Sequence record: NC_105513.1
Origin: a phage
Direction: 5' to 3' (one strand)
Length of the DNA stretch: 51,277 nt
Part shown: in pieces, positions 5,771 to 48,700 of the stretch
How positions within the stretch are numbered: the stretch's first letter is position 1
How the letters are laid out: every line of letters starts with the position of its first letter
Made by a program: the position numbers and the translations under genes
The notes under the pieces: model-generated
What the model was told of the DNA's origin: nothing
The model's input: only the letters and a program-made list of their open reading frames with translations
Databases searched by the model: none

Positions 5771-6208
5771 ATGTACATTAGCAAGAAGATGAAATGCGTT
5801 TCCGTTAATTATGGTTGTGCTGGAATGTTCAAGCCTGGCGAAATCTATACGGCGCAAAAACTGAAATCATCAACCGGATCCTTTTACGTGAGCAATAGTA
5901 AAGGGCATCGCATGTTCCTGAACGGTGGCGAAGGCACTAAGGTTATGGCGCACGCTATGGTGATTGCTGAATTTGAGGAAGTGAAAGATGGAACAAATAA
6001 GCGCGTTAAGCACAAGTTTATTGATAATCATGGCGATGCACTTGAGGTATATAAGTTCGGCGATCGCGTGTTTATTGATGGCACATTTGAAGGTGGACGC
6101 AGGCCGGATTTTAGATCGATACTCACCATTGACCAGGTGCGCAAGCTGGCGGATAAGTTAAATGATCTGGCAGATGAAATCGAATACAAGCAAATTCATT
6201 TTAATTGA
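5771..6208 (+). CDS. hypothetical protein
   Basis: 145 aa from MYISKKMK; RBS AAGGAG. Confidence 0.55.
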   Translation: MYISKKMKCVSVNYGCAGMFKPGEIYTAQKLKSSTGSFYVSNSKGHRMFLNGGEGTKVMAHAMVIAEFEEVKDGTNKRVKHKFIDNHGDALEVYKFGDRVFIDGTFEGGRRPDFRSILTIDQVRKLADKLNDLADEIEYKQIHFN

Positions 6209-6219
6209 TAGGTTTGATA

Positions 6220-6759
6220 ATGAAAAAATACGAATTTGAACTTTGGGGCAGCAAATACCATTTTTCCACGAGCAAGCCGATTGTTATCGTTGACCTGGAC
6301 GGAACGTTATCAGACGGAACGCATCGCTTACACCTGCTTCCGACAGAAGATTTGCACCTTACAGAAAGCTGGTCTGAGTTCAATAAGGCGGCTGTTGGCG
6401 ATTCGCCGATTAAGAGCACGGTTGCAGTGGTTAACGGTTTGTGGATGTCAGGATTTGCCATCGTTATCCTGACCGGACGTAGCGATGAAGTGATGGAGGA
6501 CACCTGCAAATGGATTAACGAAAACGGCATCAAGTACGATGCGTTAATCATGCGCCGCAAGGAAGACAACCGCAAAGACACAATCATTAAAGAAGAAGTC
6601 TTGCGCGCTATCGGCCTAGAAAACATCGTGTGCGCTTTTGATGATTCGCCGAACGTGGTTAAGCACTTCCGCAGCCTGGGAATCACAACCTATCAGGTCA
6701 CGGAATACGACAAGCCACATAATCATATCCAATCGCATGGCGTGGAGGAATTGAAATGA
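6220..6759 (+). CDS. HAD-superfamily phosphatase-like protein
   Basis: 179 aa; DxDGT nucleophile motif (IVIVDLDGTLSDG), later ILTGR and FDDSP motifs typical of HAD hydrolases. Confidence 0.6.
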   Translation: MKKYEFELWGSKYHFSTSKPIVIVDLDGTLSDGTHRLHLLPTEDLHLTESWSEFNKAAVGDSPIKSTVAVVNGLWMSGFAIVILTGRSDEVMEDTCKWINENGIKYDALIMRRKEDNRKDTIIKEEVLRAIGLENIVCAFDDSPNVVKHFRSLGITTYQVTEYDKPHNHIQSHGVEELK

Positions 6760-7435: not shown

Positions 7436-7629
7436 TTCTTACTATAGCGCATTCACGCAGTGCGCTATGTTGAGATAACAACATGAGATCATGAAGATGC
7501 GAAACTTCGAAAAAATCGTATCCAAAAAGAAGCGATACAGCTACCACGAGCACCAAGAGATGAATCAACGCTATCGCAATAAGCGCCAGCGCAAAGGTAA
7601 ACATTCCGGTAAACATGGAGAAAATCAAT

Positions 7630-8220
7630 ATGAAACGCGACATTATCATTCTTAACGGACCGCCAGGAGTTGGCAAAGATACGCTTGCGGCATACTTAAC
7701 GGGTCATCGTTACGCAGCGGTTAAAGCGTCATTTAAACAGCCTATGTTCGATATTGCATTCTCCATGCTTGGCGTTTACCGATATGACGAGTTCATTGAT
7801 CTGTATAACGACCGTGAGCAGAAAGAAAAGCCTCAAGCAATCTTGCAAGGTAAGTCTCCGCGACAATTCATGATCTGGATTAGCGAAGAAGTCATGAAGC
7901 CAGCTTTTGGCGAGCAATATTTTGGGAATCGCATGGTTGAGCAAGTACACGAGATGTACAGAGATTTAGCTGTTGTAATTAGTGATGGCGGATTCCCTGA
8001 AGAAATCAAGCCGCTCGTTAAGGCAGGCCATGAAGTTCACATTTGCCGACTGCATCGCGAAGGATTCACGTTTGATGGCGATTCACGAAACTATATTGAC
8101 CTGAGCGGATACCATCACCGAGTCAAGCATTACGACTTCACAATGATTGATGGCGAGCCAGAAAAGACTGTTGACGAGATCATCAAAGCGGTGCAGTGGA
8201 AACACACAAAGATTGAATAG
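7630..8220 (+). CDS. P-loop nucleotide kinase-like protein
   Basis: 196 aa; Walker A ILNGPPGVGKDT near N-terminus; RBS GGAG. Confidence 0.6.
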   Translation: MKRDIIILNGPPGVGKDTLAAYLTGHRYAAVKASFKQPMFDIAFSMLGVYRYDEFIDLYNDREQKEKPQAILQGKSPRQFMIWISEEVMKPAFGEQYFGNRMVEQVHEMYRDLAVVISDGGFPEEIKPLVKAGHEVHICRLHREGFTFDGDSRNYIDLSGYHHRVKHYDFTMIDGEPEKTVDEIIKAVQWKHTKIE

Positions 8221-40209: not shown

Positions 40210-41142
40210 TTAGAGAATTGATTCAGGTTTGAAAACCTTCCTCTCTATCCCTTGCCTGTAATTATCATTAATCGGCATCATAATTTCAAGACCTCTTTCC
40301 TCTGCGGCAATGATAGCGTCACGATCTGTGCTCTTACAGACAACTCGCATTCTTCTGTTGCCTTTATACCTGTAAGCAACAATCTCAATGTTAGTCGCAT
40401 CAAAGCAGGCCCAAACCTCTTGACCAGTTGCAAGGTGAATATGTTGCGCATCAATCCAGTCAACGCAAAGATAGATAGTCTTATCTGTGCTTCCTGTTCT
40501 CACAACCGACCCGCGCGTGTAATCCTTAGCGAGAAAAGATTTATTTCCTTCTTCATCAATGAAAAGCACATTGCACATTTCATCATCAATCTCATCTGAG
40601 TGTACCAGGTGACACGGTAGCGCGTGAATGTATCGACCATCTTTAACGCCGCATTCATAATAACCATCTTCAGGCGGATATATCCCTTCATATGTACTTA
40701 ACGGCGTGCGATCAAATTTTAGTGTTTTTGACATAACGCGCTCGCAGCATTCATGGCTTGCCTGCTTCCCAAACGAATAACCAGAATCACGAGATACTCG
40801 CTTATTTGCCTTGATCCTATAGTCCTGCGGAACTTTTCCAAGAAAGCGGCCCAAAATATTGATCACTTCGCTGTAAGGTTCTCCGGTTAGCTTCATGATC
40901 CAACCAATTCCAGTATCGTTTCCGCACACATTGCAGATAGCGCCGCCGTCGCCTTTTTTATCTCCAAGTTTATCAGTCCATCTAAAGCGATCCTTTCCGC
41001 CGCAGTGTGGGCAAGATTGATGCTTGCCGTTAAAAACTTCATTTGGAAGACCGCAAATACTTTGTAGCGCCTCACGCCATAATCCCTGCATATATGGGAG
41101 AACATCTTCCTTTTGATAAACCATAAAGTTTTCGTTATTCAT
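40210..41142 (-). CDS. putative DNA primase (zinc-ribbon, Toprim-like)
   Basis: 310 aa from [10 protein letters not shown] (RBS GAGGTG); CPHCGG...CNVCG zinc ribbon; acidic C-terminal domain. Confidence 0.5.
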
Positions 41143-41198
41143 ATGCACCTCAAACAAAAAAGCCTGACAGATGATAACATCATGCCAGGCATTGGTTT

Positions 41199-41672
41199 TT
41201 AGCAATTAGTGCTTTCAGGTTTATACAGGAATCCTCCAGGCTCATAATCTGACATTCTTACCACTCGCAACATTTCGCGCTTATCACATCTCTTTGTGAG
41301 CGGTTTGCCATTGGAATCAAATCGCAGATCTGGACGACAGAATGATGCGCGATAGCCTTGACATCCATATTTTTTGTAATCGTTATGCACCTTTTGAGCG
41401 CCAGCGGCTGAAATCATACCGCGAACGCGCCACTGATTTACAGTTTGCTGGCTAACGTTAAGACGCTTTGCCATTGCTGACACGCTGCCGTAATACTCAA
41501 TAAGAATGTCAAGCCGTGCTTTTAGTCCGGCGCGCACTTCATCTTTTAAAACATAGTATCCTGTAGGGCGCTTGCGCTTTTTCTTATCTTTACCCCGTCG
41601 AGTTCCGTTATTGCCATTGATTGTGCGTTTGTCAATCTTACCAGTTGATACTGCGATTCGCTGTTCTTTCAT
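41199..41672 (-). CDS. putative DNA-binding protein
   Basis: 157 aa; basic N-terminus (KDKKKRKRP) and helix-turn-helix-like LNVSQQTVNQWRVRG. Confidence 0.45.
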   Translation of the reverse strand: MKEQRIAVSTGKIDKRTINGNNGTRRGKDKKKRKRPTGYYVLKDEVRAGLKARLDILIEYYGSVSAMAKRLNVSQQTVNQWRVRGMISAAGAQKVHNDYKKYGCQGYRASFCRPDLRFDSNGKPLTKRCDKREMLRVVRMSDYEPGGFLYKPESTNC

Positions 41673-41684
41673 TATTCATTCTCC

Positions 41685-41728
41685 AATAGCATTTTTTGTT
41701 AAACGATGATTTAATGATTGTGTATTAT
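41685..41728 (+). promoter_or_regulatory. box-type promoter (-10 TATTAT 41723..41728)
   Basis: AATAGCATTTTTTGTTAAAC; 21-bp spacer; upstream of helicase gene. Confidence 0.55.
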
Positions 41729-41761
41729 ACACGCCAAATGGCATTACTCAAAGGTTTTAGA

Positions 41762-43801
41762 ATGATTCCAAACATTGAAAAGCAAATATCAGCACTTGGT
41801 GAGGCGGTAATTAAATCCATTCAGGAGCGATTCACTGTTGGCGATATTGTGCCTTACCCTTACCAGTGCGTTGCATACGCTGAGATCGCAAAGCGTATGA
41901 AAAATTATGAGCATCCATTCTTTGTTAAAGCGTCCGTATCGGCTGGCAAAACATTGATGTTTGCAATGGTTGCTCACCAGTGCCGGAAAATGGGCTTGAA
42001 AATGATGGTACTTGCTCGCCAGGCTGAGATTGTGGATCAGGATTCTGAAGAGATAACAAATCTTGGTGTGCCGAACTCCATCTATTGTGCAGGACTGAAG
42101 ACAAAAAGCGCATACTTTCCGATCGTTGTTGGCTCTGAGGGAACTGTAGTTAATGGACTGTTTAAAGCGCTTGGCGACTATGTTCCGCACGTTATCGGGA
42201 TTGACGAGTGTCACCAGGTGGATTGGGAAGACCTTGCCGACGCAATAGAGAAAGACGAATCATTTTTACAAATGACGACGAAGAAAGGCGAAAAAGTACC
42301 AAATCCAGATTATGACATAACTAGCGATAACGAATGCGAAGAGTTTCTGATTGGTGAGGATGGATTGCCAATGGAGGGAACAGGCCGCACACAATACACT
42401 GTCATTATCATGGAAATGATGCGCCGCTGCCGGAAAACATATGGTCATGAACTGCGCATCTTTGGTATGACTGGATCAGAGTTTCGCGGCGTGGTTCCGA
42501 TCCTTGTCGAAGATAAAAAGCAGAAAGGATTCTGGCGCGAACAGGTTACTAATATTGACACCAACTACCTGATCAAATTCGGTTCTGTTGTGCCAACAAA
42601 TTTTGGCGACGTTGGCGATCTAGGGTATGACCTTTCAGAGTTTGAGGCATCCAGTGAGGATGGCGTTGCAGACTTTGACGCTAAAACGCTTCGCAGGATG
42701 GAACAAAAAATTCATGAAGAAGCGACCATGACAAAGCGCATCATGGCGAAAGTTCACGAGATCTGTAAAAACCGTAACGGCGTACTTGTTACATGTGCAG
42801 GAGAAAGGCATTGCAAAGAGGCAGCGGCAGCTTTGCCACCTGGAACGACTTACAGGATCATTACTGGTAAGACTGGCGACAACCAGCGCAAGGAGTGGTT
42901 GAAGGAAGCATACGAGGGGAAGGTAAAATACATCTTCCAGGTTCAGGCGCTAACAACTGGCGTTAACGTGCCGTTTTGGGATACGTCGGTTATATTGCGT
43001 AAGATTGGATCTCTTACGTTGCTGATTCAGCTTTTAGGGCGCGGAATGCGACTACTTAAGAAGTGGCATAAGGAGCAAGGATTCCAGAAAGATGATCATC
43101 TCGTCATGGATTTTTCAGGAACGATGGACGAGCTAGGGGAGCTTTATTTTGATCCGATACTGGAACAGGCGCAGCACCAGAAGCGATTCAGAAATGGTAA
43201 AGATCCGAAGCCTTGTCCTATTTGCGGAACTCTTAACAGCTATTATGCTCGTCGCTGTATGCACGTAGACGAAGACGGCAACAGATGCGAGTGGTTCTTT
43301 AAATTCAGGACATGTGACGATCAGGTTGACCCACGCACTAAAAAGATTATTCAGCGCGGTTGTGGAACGAAAAATGATATTGCGGCCAGGGTATGCAGAC
43401 ATTGCGACATGTCATTGATTGACCCTAACGAGAAGTTAAGCGGAAAGCACTACACAAAAAACGACTGGTTCCAGGTGCAATCTTTCTCGGTTGACATGAC
43501 GAAAAACCAGAAAGGGATAATATTTAATTATGAGCTTTCCGATGGCATAGACACTTTCAGGGCGAGAGAGATATTTTTCCCTGAATCTGAGAGCCAAATT
43601 TGCCGCGCAAAATGGCGAAGCGTTGCTCTTAAGCACATACCAGATCGCCGCGTTGCTGGCATGGTGGCGAGCTATCGTAATGCACGAAAAATAATGCAAT
43701 ATGTTAATCACATTATGCCGCCATCGCGTGTGACTCACCGCAAGACTAGCAAGGGCGAAGATAATTTGTACAAGAAGGAATTTAATTATGGCAATGACTG
43801 A
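41762..43801 (+). CDS. ATP-dependent helicase (superfamily 2) with C-terminal zinc fingers
   Basis: 679 aa from MIPNIEKQ; Walker A SAGKTLMF, DECH box IGIDECHQV; C-terminal CPICG...C...C clusters. Confidence 0.8.
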   Translation: MIPNIEKQISALGEAVIKSIQERFTVGDIVPYPYQCVAYAEIAKRMKNYEHPFFVKASVSAGKTLMFAMVAHQCRKMGLKMMVLARQAEIVDQDSEEITNLGVPNSIYCAGLKTKSAYFPIVVGSEGTVVNGLFKALGDYVPHVIGIDECHQVDWEDLADAIEKDESFLQMTTKKGEKVPNPDYDITSDNECEEFLIGEDGLPMEGTGRTQYTVIIMEMMRRCRKTYGHELRIFGMTGSEFRGVVPILVEDKKQKGFWREQVTNIDTNYLIKFGSVVPTNFGDVGDLGYDLSEFEASSEDGVADFDAKTLRRMEQKIHEEATMTKRIMAKVHEICKNRNGVLVTCAGERHCKEAAAALPPGTTYRIITGKTGDNQRKEWLKEAYEGKVKYIFQVQALTTGVNVPFWDTSVILRKIGSLTLLIQLLGRGMRLLKKWHKEQGFQKDDHLVMDFSGTMDELGELYFDPILEQAQHQKRFRNGKDPKPCPICGTLNSYYARRCMHVDEDGNRCEWFFKFRTCDDQVDPRTKKIIQRGCGTKNDIAARVCRHCDMSLIDPNEKLSGKHYTKNDWFQVQSFSVDMTKNQKGIIFNYELSDGIDTFRAREIFFPESESQICRAKWRSVALKHIPDRRVAGMVASYRNARKIMQYVNHIMPPSRVTHRKTSKGEDNLYKKEFNYGND

Positions 43802-44207
43802 TAAAGGCGATTATCTGGAGTTTTACGAAAGAGATCCGACAGATACTCTGAAAGAGGAATCGCACCAGATCGGGGCGTTTCAATGGGTAACTTATGCTCA
43901 TCCTGAATTACTGGCATGGCATACGAAAAACGAGGGCGATAAGGGAATCGCCACCGCAATGATGGATCAGCAAGCCGGACTAGTTAAGGGTGTAAGTGAT
44001 TTTATCATCCTGATTGGATTAAAAGGCCGTTACCCGTTCGCGGCAATAGAGATGAAGCGCGTCAATAAGTCCGGCAAGGGGAAGGCTTCACCAGTCAGCA
44101 AGGATCAAAAAGCCTTCTTGCGCCGTGTGCGTGAGCTTGGCGGATTCGCTGCCGTAACATACGGATATAAGCAATTCATGATCGCTGTAGAATACATGAT
44201 GAAATAG
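43788..44207 (+). CDS. putative VRR-NUC domain nuclease
   Basis: 139 aa; GVSDFIILIG ... AAIEMKR resembles PD-(D/E)XK VRR-NUC core; adjacent to helicase. Confidence 0.5.
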   Translation: MAMTDKGDYLEFYERDPTDTLKEESHQIGAFQWVTYAHPELLAWHTKNEGDKGIATAMMDQQAGLVKGVSDFIILIGLKGRYPFAAIEMKRVNKSGKGKASPVSKDQKAFLRRVRELGGFAAVTYGYKQFMIAVEYMMK

Positions 44208-44247
44208 CACTTTTTGTTAAAACTGGCGCGAAGGATTGCGCCATAAT
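44203..44247 (+). promoter_or_regulatory. box-type promoter (-10 CATAAT 44242..44247)
   Basis: stop TAG 44205..44207 inside box; inverted repeat in spacer; upstream of dam. Confidence 0.6.
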
Positions 44248-44281
44248 AACACCAGTTCAACAAGCAACAGGTAATTAAGAA

Positions 44282-44983
44282 ATGAGTAAAGAAACTGAAG
44301 TGACATTTGAACAAATAGAACGAGAAACATTCATTGGCAATGCTCTTGCTACTGGAGGCCATTACCAGGCCGTTAAACCAAATCAATATTATAAAGTCAC
44401 TGGCAACCGCTATAACGGCAGCAATACGCCGGACGTTGTGCGAGATTTGTGGTCTACGCCGTCTGAGCTTGTCGCATGGATGGAAATCGAATACGGTGAT
44501 TATGACATCGACGCGGCGGCAAGCAAAGAAAATGCTGTATGTGAAAAATTCTACAGCAAGGAAACAAATTGCTTAAAGCGTTGGTGGGGTAGTAATAAGC
44601 ATATATGGCTGAATCCGCCGTACAGCAATATAACGCCTTTCGTTAAGAAAGCGATTGAGCAAATGGAGCACAATAACCAGATCGACATTCTGTTACCTTG
44701 CGACACATCGACAGGATGGTTTTATGAGGCACAGCAGAAAGCAGCGGAAATCATCTGGATCACTGGCGAAGTTTACCAGGAGGGCGGAACAGAATATTCC
44801 CGAACAGGACGCCTTGCGTTTACCTCGGCCCTTACAGGTAAACCAGTACAGGGAAACAACAAAGGCAGCGTTATTTTCATCATGCGAGAACTGAAAGAAG
44901 GTGAGAAGCAGAAAACGCGATACGTTAAAATCAGCGACATTTGCCCTTCGGTGGCAGACCGTCGCGCACGGAAACGGAGCTAA
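44282..44983 (+). CDS. dam: DNA N6-adenine methyltransferase (phage Dam-like)
   Basis: 233 aa; YDIDAAAS and NPPY catalytic motifs. Confidence 0.8.
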   Translation: MSKETEVTFEQIERETFIGNALATGGHYQAVKPNQYYKVTGNRYNGSNTPDVVRDLWSTPSELVAWMEIEYGDYDIDAAASKENAVCEKFYSKETNCLKRWWGSNKHIWLNPPYSNITPFVKKAIEQMEHNNQIDILLPCDTSTGWFYEAQQKAAEIIWITGEVYQEGGTEYSRTGRLAFTSALTGKPVQGNNKGSVIFIMRELKEGEKQKTRYVKISDICPSVADRRARKRS

Positions 44984-44987
44984 AGCC

Positions 44988-45245
44988 ATGCAAAAAGAAA
45001 GAAGCATTTATTTAAATGAAACTGGAAAGTGGTTGTTATTTCGCGCTATGGTATGCGATGCACTTGATAAAAACCCTAACGTGAAAAAGATGATTGATTG
45101 CGATCCGTGGGAATTTTCAAGCGCATTAGACATGAGCTTTGAGGAGATCAAAAAACTCCCGCTTGAAAAATGGAACGAGCAAATCAGAAATGACATGCAA
45201 GAATTTGTCGATTCGTGGAATTTTCAGCACGGAATAATCCACTAA
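44988..45245 (+). CDS. hypothetical protein
   Basis: 85 aa from MQKERSIY, RBS GGAG. Confidence 0.5.
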   Translation: MQKERSIYLNETGKWLLFRAMVCDALDKNPNVKKMIDCDPWEFSSALDMSFEEIKKLPLEKWNEQIRNDMQEFVDSWNFQHGIIH

Positions 45246-45288
45246 TAGCACTTTTTGTTAAAACGCCCGACCTTGTGTCGGGCATAAT
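45244..45288 (+). promoter_or_regulatory. box-type promoter (-10 CATAAT 45283..45288)
   Basis: 22-bp spacer containing inverted repeat GCCCGA...TCGGGC. Confidence 0.6.
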
Positions 45289-45320
45289 TATTTCATCAAA
45301 ACGAACAAGAGGAAAACAAA

Positions 45321-45500
45321 ATGGTTGTTTACGATCCACGCGCTTTTAAAATTGCTCAAGAAGTTTCACGCGAATCTGTTGCTGGCGGTTCGGTTAACGG
45401 CTATCAGTTTGATTGGTCGGCAGCAATGACCTTGCTTAAGGTTGCATATGGTCACGCGCCAATTGAAACAGCGGAGGCATATTATAAGCATGAAGGTTGA
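45321..45500 (+). CDS. hypothetical small protein (59 aa)
   Basis: MVVYDPRAFKIAQEV...; RBS AAGAGGAAAA; below ORF-track cutoff. Confidence 0.4.
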   Translation: MVVYDPRAFKIAQEVSRESVAGGSVNGYQFDWSAAMTLLKVAYGHAPIETAEAYYKHEG

Positions 45501-45732
45501 ACAAGGTAGGCAGGCTGTATGGGATCACGCAAAGGAATGCGGGATCGCAGAAGACATAGCCAGGATAGCGAAATATTTTGATATTGCTGACATAAGCATT
45601 ATCAGCGGCGACAAAATGACATTTCTCAATGAGCGACCGCGCAAAATGCATCGAGTACCTGCAATACCAACAAAGATTGATTTCAAAGAGGCTATGGCGA
45701 AAATTCGCGAGCCGCGCAAATACTACAAATGA
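45490..45732 (+). CDS. hypothetical protein
   Basis: 80 aa from MKVEQGRQ; RBS GGAGG. Confidence 0.45.
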   Translation: MKVEQGRQAVWDHAKECGIAEDIARIAKYFDIADISIISGDKMTFLNERPRKMHRVPAIPTKIDFKEAMAKIREPRKYYK

Positions 45733-45830
45733 GGATTATTATCATGTGGCGTTTGTTACTTTTGCCCTTACCTGTTATGATGGTGATCTCTATTGTATAT
45801 GTTGTCATAATGAGATAAGGAGAATTTTTG

Positions 45831-46946
45831 ATGAAGCAAATCAAAATCACAGATGAACAATTTATCAATGAGCGCAAGCAGGGAAAGACATATAAGCAGA
45901 TCGCTAGTGAGTATGGCATGAACGTTCGCAGCATTGAGCGACGCGCGGCACGATTAGCAAAGCAGGGTAAAGTTACAACCATCGGATCACCTGGTTTTGG
46001 TGTTACTGGAGAATCAAAGCTAATTGATAAAGATGGCAATGTGGTTATGACATGGATTAAGACAAGCAAAGACCGCGAACAGTTAGAAGCATTAATGCAG
46101 GCCGCTATGGATGCATTTAGCGAAGAAGTTCCGCGACTTGATCCGCAGCCAGAATCACAAAAGGATTATAGCGAGACGTTATCACTGTATCCGATCTTTG
46201 ACATGCACTTGGGCGCAATGGCGCATAAGCATGAATGCGGCGAGAATTGGGATACAGCAACAGCAGAGCGCGTAATGAATAATTTCATTGATTATTCCAT
46301 CCAGTGCGCGCCGGATAGTGAAAAAGCTGTTTTGCTGATTGGTGGTGATATGCTTCACAGCGACGGACTGGAAGCGGTGACACCTGCAAGCGGTCACGTA
46401 TTAGATCAAGATAGTCGATACGCAAAACTTGTTTATGTTGCCATCCGGTCAGTGCGTCGAGCAATCACAAAGCTGTTATCAAAACACAAAAACGTCGAGA
46501 TTCAGATTATTGAAGGAAACCACGACCAAAGCGGCATGATCTGGTTGCGCGCAGCAATGGCGGCAGCGTATGAGAATGAGCCGCGAGTGCATGTTGATGT
46601 GTCTCCGCGAGTGGTTCATCACACACAATATGGCAAAACATTCCTGGCATACCATCATGGGCACACTATCCGCAAGCCTGAAACATTGCTCATGATGTGT
46701 GCGGCAGACTGGCGCGAAGACTTCGGAAATTCAAAAATGATGTATGCTCACGTAGGGCACTGGCATCATCAGACAGTAACTGAAACAAGTCTGGGCATTG
46801 TTGAAGTGCATAGCACTATGGCGGCAAAAGATGCATATGCGGCGCGCGGTGGATGGCGTTCTCGTCGCCGTGCGGCTGTTATTGTTTATGATAAAGAATA
46901 CGGAGAAGTAGGTCGATTTATGCATTATCCAGAAATGGCTGGTTGA
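45831..46946 (+). CDS. calcineurin-like metallophosphoesterase with N-terminal HTH-like extension
   Basis: 372 aa; ordered MPP motifs FDMH, GGDMLHSDG, EGNHD, YHHGH, GHWHH; N-terminal YKQIASEYGMNVRSIERRAARL. Confidence 0.6.
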   Translation: MKQIKITDEQFINERKQGKTYKQIASEYGMNVRSIERRAARLAKQGKVTTIGSPGFGVTGESKLIDKDGNVVMTWIKTSKDREQLEALMQAAMDAFSEEVPRLDPQPESQKDYSETLSLYPIFDMHLGAMAHKHECGENWDTATAERVMNNFIDYSIQCAPDSEKAVLLIGGDMLHSDGLEAVTPASGHVLDQDSRYAKLVYVAIRSVRRAITKLLSKHKNVEIQIIEGNHDQSGMIWLRAAMAAAYENEPRVHVDVSPRVVHHTQYGKTFLAYHHGHTIRKPETLLMMCAADWREDFGNSKMMYAHVGHWHHQTVTETSLGIVEVHSTMAAKDAYAARGGWRSRRRAAVIVYDKEYGEVGRFMHYPEMAG

Positions 46947-46989
46947 ACTTTTAATCATTAAAATATAAATATAAATCATCAATTTAATT

Positions 46990-47020
46990 GGGCGTGGCAT
47001 TTTGCTTCGCCCTTTTTTTA
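46990..47020 (+). terminator. possible terminator before lysis cassette
   Basis: GGGCG...CGCCC with 13-nt loop then TTTTTTT. Confidence 0.45.
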
Positions 47021-47092
47021 TTCCTTTTTGTGCGTTCAATGGTTAGGATACAATCAATTAATTGTTGACTTTTATATACAGGAGATCTAATC

Positions 47093-47308
47093 ATGAAAGA
47101 TTTTTTAAACGCTGCAACTTCCGGCACTGGCGGCGCGTCAATCACTGGCGCGGTAACTGGTCAAACAACTATTGCAATAGCCAGCTTCGTTTTGATGGCT
47201 GCATTTGGTATGTGGGGCGCTTATCTTCGCTGGCGTGATAGTAAGGCGCTACGTAACGCGCTTGAATGCGGTGATATTAAGAAAGCTATTGAGATCAGAG
47301 GTAAATAA
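47093..47308 (+). CDS. holin
   Basis: 71 aa, hydrophobic core [29 protein letters not shown] and charged C-terminus; first gene of lysis cassette. Confidence 0.6.
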
Positions 47309-47796
47309 TGAGTATAAAACAAAGAGTGACCGCTGCGGCTTTTGGCGTTGCTCTTGCTCTTACTTCTCCATTGCTGGAGGAAATAGAAGGAGTAAAATAT
47401 AAGCCGTACAAAGATATTGCTGGAATATGGACGGTTTGCGCCGGAATAACTGGACCTGACGTAATACCAGGTAAAACGTACACACAGAGAGAGTGCGATG
47501 CGCTACTGGCAAAGCATATCAAGATCGCAAAGGATGAAGTTGATAAGCGCGTGAAGGTTGATATTCCTGATACAATGCGCGCGGCAATGTATTCATTCAC
47601 ATACAATGCTGGCACTGGTGCTTTTAGAAATTCAACCATGCTTAAGCTGATTAATAACGGTCGTTATATGGAAGCGTGCGATCAGTTATGGCGATGGACA
47701 AAATACACCAATCCAAAAACAGGAAAGAAAGAAACGTCTAAAGGACTGCGAAACCGCCGCGCTGTGGAATTTAAATATTGCATTAAGGATCTGTAA
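47308..47796 (+). CDS. endolysin (phage lysozyme, GH24-like)
   Basis: 162 aa; E-x8-D-x5-T triad context ([16 protein letters not shown]); N-terminal hydrophobic stretch suggests signal-anchor-release type. Confidence 0.8.
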
Positions 47797-47798
47797 TT

Positions 47799-48197
47799 AT
47801 GAGAAAGTTATCAATAATCGCAATCGCTGTTATTTTGTCTGGATGTTCAAGCGTTATGCCACTGACCGGATTAATCGGTAGTAAGCCGGAAATCACAGCA
47901 CAGGCAGGAGCGGAGAACGTAAAGCAGACCGTTGGCGTTACCGCAAAGCAGGACACCAGCACAAAACAGGAAACTACAATAAATGAATCTGCGGTTGATA
48001 AGGTGGACAATTCCAGCAAGAAGGATTTTACTACGTCAACCATTCAGGCTAACACCATCAAGGCTGATAAAATCCAGGTCGTGCAAGGTGGGCAAAGGAA
48101 GTGGTACGATCCTATAATCTATTGCGCGGCAATTTTTAGTGGTCTTTTGTCAATGCTTTACTTTTCCTACCGCAAAGGCAACAAAAAGGAGGCTTAA
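47799..48197 (+). CDS. unimolecular spanin (T1 gp11-like)
   Basis: 132 aa; N-terminal lipobox LSGC plus C-terminal TM helix IIYCAAIFSGLLSMLYFSY. Confidence 0.65.
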   Translation: MRKLSIIAIAVILSGCSSVMPLTGLIGSKPEITAQAGAENVKQTVGVTAKQDTSTKQETTINESAVDKVDNSSKKDFTTSTIQANTIKADKIQVVQGGQRKWYDPIIYCAAIFSGLLSMLYFSYRKGNKKEA

Positions 48198-48213
48198 CGC
48201 CTCCTTTGTTTTA
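48182..48213. terminator. bidirectional terminator after spanin gene
   Basis: GGAGGC-TTAAC-GCCTCC then TTTGTTTTA; spanin stop inside loop. Confidence 0.65.
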
Positions 48214-48432
48214 TAGTGAATCCATCAAATCTTGAAAGCTGTTTCCGCTATAATCATTCTCGACAAGAATGTAAGCACCTTTCTTCTTTATATCCCATAA
48301 CATTTCATTGTATTCGTAACGATTTATTTCAAACGTGCTACCATCTTCTCTTGTCGCAGTTCCTTTGTCGTTGAAAACATCAAAAGTTACATTGATGATT
48401 TTTGTTTCTTTCTTTGTTACTTTGATAGCCAT
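48211..48432 (-). CDS. hypothetical protein
   Basis: 73 aa from MAIKVTKK; start chosen because conserved leader GAGGATTTTAAAAATG precedes it. Confidence 0.5.
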   Translation of the reverse strand: MAIKVTKKETKIINVTFDVFNDKGTATREDGSTFEINRYEYNEMLWDIKKKGAYILVENDYSGNSFQDLMDSL

Positions 48433-48465
48433 TTTTAAAATCCTCATATTCGCTTCGATGAAACA

Positions 48466-48510
48466 AATATACCCGATACGAGATCAGGTGTTTTAACAAA
48501 AAGTGCTATT
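48466..48510 (-). promoter_or_regulatory. box-type promoter (box 48491..48510, -10 TATATT)
   Basis: 22-bp spacer; conserved leader CATCGAAGCGAATATGAGGA. Confidence 0.6.
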
Positions 48511-48700
48511 CAATACGCTTTACAGTAACCAACAAAACTCCGTCCTCATCACACAAATTATGCTCTGATATATCAAACGCTCGCATGTCAGAATGAATGA
48601 GCGTTAACATTGCGTGCATGAAGTCGTCATGTGAGATTGAACTTACGGCGCAGAACTTCAATATTTTGTCTATTAGCATTTGACGTAAACAATTCTTCAT
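48506..48700 (-). CDS. hypothetical protein (start uncertain)
   Basis: ORF overlaps 48627..49019 in another frame; stop TAG embedded in promoter box. Confidence 0.35.
   Translation of the reverse strand: MKNCLRQMLIDKILKFCAVSSISHDDFMHAMLTLIHSDMRAFDISEHNLCDEDGVLLVTVKRIE

Follow-up and report, generated by a model that had tools for sequence, protein, structure and literature searches.

A helix-turn-helix metallophosphoesterase of T1-like phages as a candidate DNA-processing enzyme

The phage sequence NC_105513.1 (51,277 bp; hereafter, the window) is the complete genome of a T1-like siphophage of the genus Hanrivervirus (Tempevirinae, Drexlerviridae). We analyzed a gene at the end of its replication gene array, which encodes a metallophosphoesterase (MPP) domain preceded by a helix-turn-helix (HTH) region (Table 1). 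The analysis showed the MPP fold and domain architecture, intact catalytic motifs, sequence conservation, and placement in the operon. The DNA-binding head and the DNA-metabolism neighborhoods of the gene suggest DNA as the likely substrate. With moderate confidence, we propose that the protein is a stand-alone, HTH-tethered, binuclear-metal nuclease or phosphodiesterase of the Mre11/DP1 type, which would process DNA in phage replication, recombination, or repair. A preliminary description, made from the sequence alone, had recognized a metallophosphoesterase with an N-terminal HTH in an early region and had suggested a phosphatase or an enzyme degrading immune signals. The architecture and the placement in an early/middle array held up, whereas the suggested role is redirected here to that of a probable DNA nuclease.

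The protein has the five ordered metal-binding motifs of the calcineurin-like metallophosphoesterase superfamily on an MPP fold. In this superfamily, the motifs are DxH, GDxxD/H, GNH[D/E], H, and GHxH, and the fold is a four-layer alpha/beta sandwich. The window protein contains D124-M-H126 (motif I), G172-D173-M-L-H176-S-D178 (motif II), G229-N230-H231-D232 (motif III), H275-H276-G-H278 (motif IV), and G309-H310-W-H312-H313 (motif V). This order, already pointed out in the preliminary description, was confirmed by translation and by aligning 63 diverse members of the family, among which D124, H126, D173, N230, H231, H276, G309, and H312 were invariant. A family-specific insert follows motif II, with T184, D192, D194, and R196 conserved in the same alignment. 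Comparison of the structural model with known structures included a Foldseek search of the PDB, and no solved relative matched this insert. Among the codons differing from the haarsle ortholog, 22 differences were synonymous and 4 nonsynonymous, indicating that the gene is under purifying selection.

The longest open reading frame (ORF) listed at this locus, 45828-46946 (+), begins with TTG. The ATG at 45831 is the true start, because it has a Shine-Dalgarno spacing of 8 nucleotides (nt), the stop codon of the upstream ORF (TAA, 45816-45818) lies 12 nt before it, and homologs share the MKQIK start.

The N-terminal extension was likewise borne out. It comprises about 115 residues and opens with a three-helix HTH; in 63/63 aligned members, 115 to 165 residues precede motif I. 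An AlphaFold2 model built on the 63-member alignment had a mean predicted local distance difference test (pLDDT) value of 91.5 and a predicted template modeling score of 0.76. It replaced a single-sequence model (pLDDT 45), which was discarded. The model places the HTH helices at residues 8-16, 21-28, and 32-44, followed by a long beta-hairpin carrying the near-invariant W75, and the MPP core begins at residue 116. The HTH of the window protein itself matched Pfam families below threshold (HTH_28, E 0.002; Sigma70_r4_2, E 0.012). Many family members matched HTH families (Sigma70_r4_2, HTH_23, HTH_28, HTH_8, GerE, and others), the best with an E value of 1.5e-09. Profile matches to the HTHs of GerE, FixJ, and sigma-H in the PDB were weak (E 0.017-0.6). 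Over the 62 other members, mean identity to the window protein was 0.26 for the HTH, 0.26 for residues 81-115, and 0.44 for the MPP core. The low conservation of the HTH and its assignment to different families in different members would fit lineage-specific DNA recognition. A search for repeats around the gene found nothing that convincingly resembled an operator for the HTH.

The protein belongs to PHROG 704 ("DNA repair exonuclease"), with an E value of 1.9e-151 and residues 5-370 aligned to profile positions 3-389 of 390. The "putative phosphoesterase" of Escherichia phage JLBYU09 (UGL62529) shares 100% identity with it, and T1 ORF16 (AAP49983) shares 56.6%. Both orthologs have the same architecture and occupy the same place, last before a terminator and the lysis cassette, and we found no material difference between the window gene and these two or the PHROG 704 family. 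The gene is thus already known and annotated, and the family takes its name from fold and HMM similarity alone. In the T1 GenBank record, ORF16 is annotated as "exonuclease, HHpred 99% to E. coli SbcD 4LTY", an HHpred figure that was not reproduced here. A tblastn search detected homologs in 2,047 of 50,697 phage records, including Drexlerviridae, Dhillonvirus, Jerseyvirus/Kagunavirus, Jedunavirus, the SP6-like phage Era103, Campylobacter myoviruses, and Vibrio, Roseobacter, Sulfitobacter, Alteromonas, and Flavobacterium phages. An exhaustive HMMER search gave 4,648 clusters at 50% identity (E <= 0.001). The "DNA repair exonuclease" is a persistent core gene of Drexlerviridae (508/522 genomes; PMC13164509). 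In BFVD, many uncharacterized phage proteins with the same architecture were found and zero characterized ones. A phmmer search of PDB sequences gave no match, and in NCBIfam the only match was a sub-threshold one of 32 residues to PdeM (E 3.8e-4; 19.9 bits versus a cutoff of 150 bits). This is one of the most widespread uncharacterized phage enzyme families, with its function assigned solely by fold-based labels; as a sequence feature, the gene is ordinary.

The position of the gene links it to DNA metabolism. The gene order of the window is that of JLBYU09 and haarsle: terminase, head and tail genes, RecE-like exonuclease, Erf, single-stranded DNA-binding protein, primase, and regulator, followed by helicase, VRR-NUC, Dam, the HTH-metallophosphoesterase gene, holin, endolysin, and spanin. 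Region 45000-47400 was 100% identical to JLBYU09 and approximately 95% identical to haarsle, slyngel, damhaus, and pSf-1. The metallophosphoesterase gene is the last of a tightly packed rightward array beginning at the helicase gene, and an intrinsic terminator closes this transcription unit ahead of the holin gene. The sole stem change in the haarsle terminator is C to U, which converts a G-C pair to G-U. In the T1 record, a rho-independent terminator with another sequence occupies this position, directly 3' of ORF16.

It is reasonable to suppose that the gene is expressed together with the early/middle replication genes. The preliminary description had it driven from an early-type promoter region; its location in an early/middle replication array agrees with this, but a promoter of its own is not supported. 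In region 41000-48600, 16 sigma-70-like matches were counted, compared with 15.4 +/- 4.2 in shuffled sequence. A weak TTGTTA-17-TATGAT match at 45753-45781, within the small upstream ORF, is therefore no evidence for a dedicated promoter.

Gene neighborhoods in other phages were compared using 13 annotated records and two prophage contigs, a non-statistical sample. In T1 and Hanrivervirus (Drexlerviridae), helicase, VRR-NUC, Dam, and small ORFs precede the family gene. In the lambdoid phage mEp013 and in Escherichia coli prophages, the order is replication initiator, a variable gene, the family gene, and a DnaB-type helicase gene; lambdoid phages usually have a helicase loader roughly where the homolog adjoins this helicase. 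In the SP6-like phage Era103, the family gene stands between exonuclease and endonuclease VII genes on one side and genes for polynucleotide kinase (PNK), a hypothetical protein, and an ATP-dependent DNA ligase on the other. In JD001, it terminates a primase operon, with the terminase genes coming next; in CP81, a RusA resolvase gene is nearby; and in Alteromonas phage P24, it is found after a nuclease gene and before a hypothetical gene and a deoxynucleoside monophosphate (dNMP) kinase gene. In RDJL Phi1 and in Sinorhizobium and Flavobacterium phages, it is surrounded by unannotated genes. The lambdoid homologs had 66-67% identity (loci L019, 7001-9559; L020, 534-3092; L004, 6001-8553).

Comparison with known metallophosphoesterases pointed tentatively to Mre11/SbcD. 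When the MPP part was used alone as a profile against PDB chains (E < 10), the only matches were Mre11/SbcD of Thermotoga maritima (E 0.13) and a DNA nuclease metallophosphoesterase (E 0.7), which are individually not significant. The alignment of motifs I and II paired "SDWHLG...GDLLHS" of T. maritima Mre11 with "TDlHlG...GDflhyD", an Mre11-like "DxHLG...GDxLH" pattern. The nuclease motif of Mre11/SbcD has a His three residues past the motif II Asp (GDLFH type). The window protein has this residue (G-D-M-L-H176); H176 is near invariant in the family and aligns with "GDLLHS". The hhalign comparison of the family profile with E. coli SbcD gave a probability of 2.5%; such comparisons with single sequences (SbcD, NinI, Bxb1 gp47, and T5 A1) have low sensitivity, and their values are comparative only. 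The window protein does not belong to phrog_100, the SbcD-like family. It also differs from Mre11/SbcD and DP1 in its N-terminal HTH, its beta-hairpin connector, and the conserved insert after motif II. PolD DP1 and the B subunits are defined by an OB-fold domain combined with a phosphodiesterase domain and by a catalytic polymerase partner, and the window protein does not show this combination.

A parallel in architecture is the pre-early protein A1 of phage T5 (phrog_1745), needed for host DNA degradation and second-step transfer. Like the window protein, it combines an N-terminal DNA-binding or HTH region with a C-terminal MPP domain, and it has been likened to the same two classes of nucleases. 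A1 is a predicted metallophosphatase that resembles double-strand break repair nucleases and polymerase proofreading subunits; host DNA degradation requires it, and it is sufficient for this process (bioRxiv 10.64898/2026.04.02.716235). It has been described as an N-terminal DNA-binding domain joined to a C-terminal endonuclease domain (PMC12916289). Homologs of A1 carry N-terminal HTH Pfam matches. Both T5 and T1-like phages are virulent coliphages that degrade host DNA. However, A1 is larger (556 aa), has a large middle region, and is encoded by a pre-early gene with an A2 partner, whereas the T1-type gene is the last in a replication operon and is also found in temperate phages. The window protein did not match phrog_1745, and its similarity to the A1 family (BLASTP E 0.31; profile-profile probability 22%) does not establish homology past the superfamily level.

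A second precedent comes from mycobacteriophages. Gp48 of A10ZJ24 is a metallophosphoesterase that acts as a DNase both in vitro and in vivo, and the cluster A enzyme was reported to have phosphodiesterase activity and to be involved in phage DNA replication and in damage to host DNA (PMC12287305). Motifs III to V of the mycobacteriophage enzyme ("EGNHD...HGH..K...GHTHRQ") align with those of the window protein ("EGNHD...HHGH..K...GHWHHQ"). In contrast to the latter, it has 255 aa, its motif I is near residue 10, and it has no HTH extension. The related Bxb1 gp47 belongs to a different PHROG (phrog_221) and compared poorly with the window protein (hhalign 14.6%; BLASTP E 0.075).

If the proposed nuclease function is correct, the N-terminal HTH would tether the enzyme to DNA. 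Being expressed last in the helicase/VRR-NUC/Dam (replication-recombination) transcription unit, the enzyme would act during phage DNA replication, recombination, or repair, and its MPP domain would most likely cut or trim DNA at ends, at flaps or hairpins, or at 3' termini that are blocked. This activity may also contribute to host chromosome breakdown in virulent T1-like phages.

Several observations weigh against this proposal. No capping domain as in Mre11/SbcD and no OB domain as in DP1 were detected in the window protein. A Rad50/SbcC or DP2 partner was not found among the ten larger nonstructural ORFs scanned, and none is annotated in JLBYU09. Profile similarity to the characterized phage MPP nucleases, given above for the A1 family and Bxb1 gp47, is weak. 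Some neighborhoods lie outside replication modules: the family gene is part of a small reverse-oriented island within the tail genes of Jerseyvirus/Kagunavirus, has lysis and head genes nearby in a Vibrio phage, and closes the late operon of Sulfitobacter phage pCB2047-A. Its presence in temperate phages also speaks against destruction of host DNA as a general role. Our literature search turned up no experiments on T1 gp16, the PHROG 704 family, or escape mutants mapping there. The text of the CRISPRi-ART paper does not mention such a gene; whether the screened phages carry a family member was not checked.

The Jerseyvirus/Kagunavirus island is located between tail-chaperone and major-tail genes, together with endonuclease and DNA-binding protein genes (locus L006, 4747-7729, in Salmonella phage wast; locus L013, 3608-5714).

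The host genome is degraded by T1 and TLS, through genes that the 2024 re-annotation of TLS described as still unidentified (PMC11447400). Together with the precedents of T5 A1 and Gp48, which have both since been tied to host DNA degradation, this led us to the hypothesis that the HTH-metallophosphoesterase supplies the activity, as the nuclease that starts host chromosome degradation in T1-like phages and as a functional counterpart of A1. We regard this extension as doubtful, because the family is found in replication modules of temperate phages and the gene is not immediate-early. If it were true, the same activity would underlie the classical high-transduction, degradation-defective mutants of T1, and the fast-evolving HTH would help to direct or restrain the nuclease. 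The gene is an obvious and cheap candidate, which bears on generalized transduction by T1-like phages and on the safety of phage therapy.

Four other explanations were weighed. An end-healing phosphoesterase would use its MPP domain to remove 3'-phosphates, 2',3'-cyclic phosphates, or other 3' blocks, acting with a kinase-only PNK and, where present, a ligase. This arrangement is suggested by Era103, in which the PNK gene directly follows the family gene and a ligase gene comes after one intervening ORF; bacterial Pnkp has a comparable combination of kinase, MPP phosphatase, and ligase. The window encodes a PNK (6205-6759, +) that matches polynucleotide kinase PHROGs (phrog_415). At 184 aa, it is probably a kinase-only enzyme, since T4 Pnkp, with kinase and phosphatase, has approximately 300 aa. 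In Drexlerviridae without an SH3 gene, PNK and dNMP kinase genes are the commonest right after the "DNA repair exonuclease" gene (PMC13164509). However, the window PNK gene is located about 39 kb from the metallophosphoesterase gene, no ligase is annotated in JLBYU09, and the HTH suggests binding of duplex DNA instead of tRNA repair, so we consider an end-healing role unlikely. The left arm of the window also contains a dNMP kinase gene (7615-8220, +; phrog_139).

For the other three explanations (a protein phosphatase, an immune-signal phosphodiesterase, and a regulator), there is little or no specific support. The preliminary description had considered a lambda-type phosphatase; a Ser/Thr/Tyr protein phosphatase of this kind (PPP family), with host or phage phosphoproteins as substrates, would share the general MPP fold and the five-motif layout. 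Lambda NinI is likewise a phage-encoded member of the superfamily, and some records name homologs "putative serine/threonine protein phosphatase" or "acid phosphatase". However, NinI falls into a separate family (phrog_246), its hhalign probability was 0.5%, and the PPP motif variants GDxHG, GDxVDRG, and GNHE are absent, motif II being GDMLHSD; this function is extremely improbable. The same description had raised, as an alternative, a phosphodiesterase that breaks down nucleotide signals of host immunity; its substrates would be, for example, cyclic oligonucleotides or molecules of the cyclic ADP-ribose type. This is very unlikely: PADLOC gave no match for the protein, our literature search found no report tying the PHROG 704 family to escape from signaling defenses, and both the N-terminal extension, which is present in 63/63 members and in many of them matches HTH families, and the DNA-metabolism neighborhoods in several lineages point to DNA. 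Near-universality in Drexlerviridae is also more in keeping with a core function than with an accessory counter-defense gene. Finally, the protein could be a DNA-binding regulator, for example, of an early-to-late switch, with the MPP domain as a scaffold or sensor. Its HTH is sigma-70 region 4-like, and its gene is often the last early gene before late modules, like lambda Q. This boundary position recurs before the Drexlerviridae lysis cassette (with the terminator between), the JD001 terminase genes, and the Vibrio phage head genes. In addition, the MPP protein Bxb1 gp47 moonlights as a recombination directionality factor. Nevertheless, the metal-binding residues are invariant in 63 diverse members, which argues for catalysis over a scaffold role. 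The gene is also present among DNA-metabolism genes in Era103, a member of Autographiviridae, whose phages encode their own RNA polymerase, and inside the replication module of lambdoid prophages. We therefore give a regulatory role very little credence and retain the DNA nuclease or phosphodiesterase as the preferred function.

Table 1. Coordinates of the HTH-metallophosphoesterase gene, its domains and motifs, and its transcription unit in the window
Feature	Position	Strand	Basis
HTH-metallophosphoesterase gene, 371 aa + stop	45831-46946	+	T1 ORF16 (CPTT1_064) ortholog; PHROG 704 member
Shine-Dalgarno AAGGAG, 8 nt 5' of ATG	45817-45822	+	Read from sequence
Three-helix HTH (aa 1-47), sigma-70 region 4/LuxR-GerE-like	45831-45971	+	AlphaFold2; sub-threshold Pfam; family HTH matches
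Connector (aa 48-115): hairpin 56-80, helix 82-99, linker	45972-46175	+	AlphaFold2 model, alignment conservation
Metallophosphoesterase core (aa 116-371), motifs I-V + family-specific insert after motif II	46176-46943	+	Alignment, AlphaFold2 model
Motif I	46200-46208	+	
Motif II	46344-46364	+	
Motif III	46515-46526	+	
Motif IV	46653-46664	+	
Motif V	46755-46769	+	
Helicase	41696-43801	+	PHROG scan; JLBYU09/haarsle annotation
VRR-NUC-like gene	43788-44207	+	PHROG scan; JLBYU09/haarsle annotation
Dam methyltransferase	44282-44983	+	PHROG scan; JLBYU09/haarsle annotation
Co-directional upstream array, including four small ORFs without assigned function	41696-45818	+	PHROG scans, annotations
29-codon ORF, highly hydrophobic peptide MRIIIMWRLLLLPLPVMMVISIVYVVIMR	45729-45818	+	No PHROG match; "hypothetical" in JLBYU09
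Intrinsic terminator: hairpin GGGCGUGGCA-UUU-UGCUUCGCCC, then U7	46990-47019	+	dG -14.6 kcal/mol, z -4.2

Additional elements were noted around the transcription unit. A TTGACT-18-AATCAT sequence at 47065-47094 was rejected as a holin promoter, because its -10 hexamer covers the holin ATG (47093). A G+C-rich hairpin at 45265-45283 (+; dG -13.6 kcal/mol, z -3.4) has no clean U-tract and is located in the 75-nt gap between ORFs 44988-45245 and 45321-45500, flanked by TTGTTA and CATAAT hexamers approximately 21 nt apart. Its possible roles in the replication operon are those of a weak internal terminator, an attenuator, or an RNA-processing site. The first of these two ORFs (+) starts in the JLBYU09 annotation at a GTG equivalent to 44901, overlapping the 3' end of dam. 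The alternative ATG at 44988, 5 nt past the dam stop codon, agrees with the shorter haarsle annotation and gives a protein of 85 aa that matches phrog_2676. Another hairpin, at 48185-48207 (dG -14.7 kcal/mol, z -4.3), follows the spanin gene, with convergent leftward genes on its other side, and looks like a bidirectional terminator; in T1, a terminator is annotated at the equivalent place.

The JLBYU09 record (OK272487.1) has 48,988 bp, compared to the 51,277 bp of the window. The coordinate offset between them is +787 at the terminase genes and has risen to +2,358 by the metallophosphoesterase gene, so the window contains approximately 1.6 kb of extra sequence between these genes. Some T1-like relatives are filed under other hosts. 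Campylobacter phage E6 (MG065643.1) and Streptococcus phage MBBL140 (P0051) are near-identical T1-like sequences, with 95.7% and 79% protein identity, respectively. In total, 20 "Campylobacter" records matched by megablast. These "Campylobacter" and "Streptococcus" T1-like records are probably coliphage contaminants or host misassignments.

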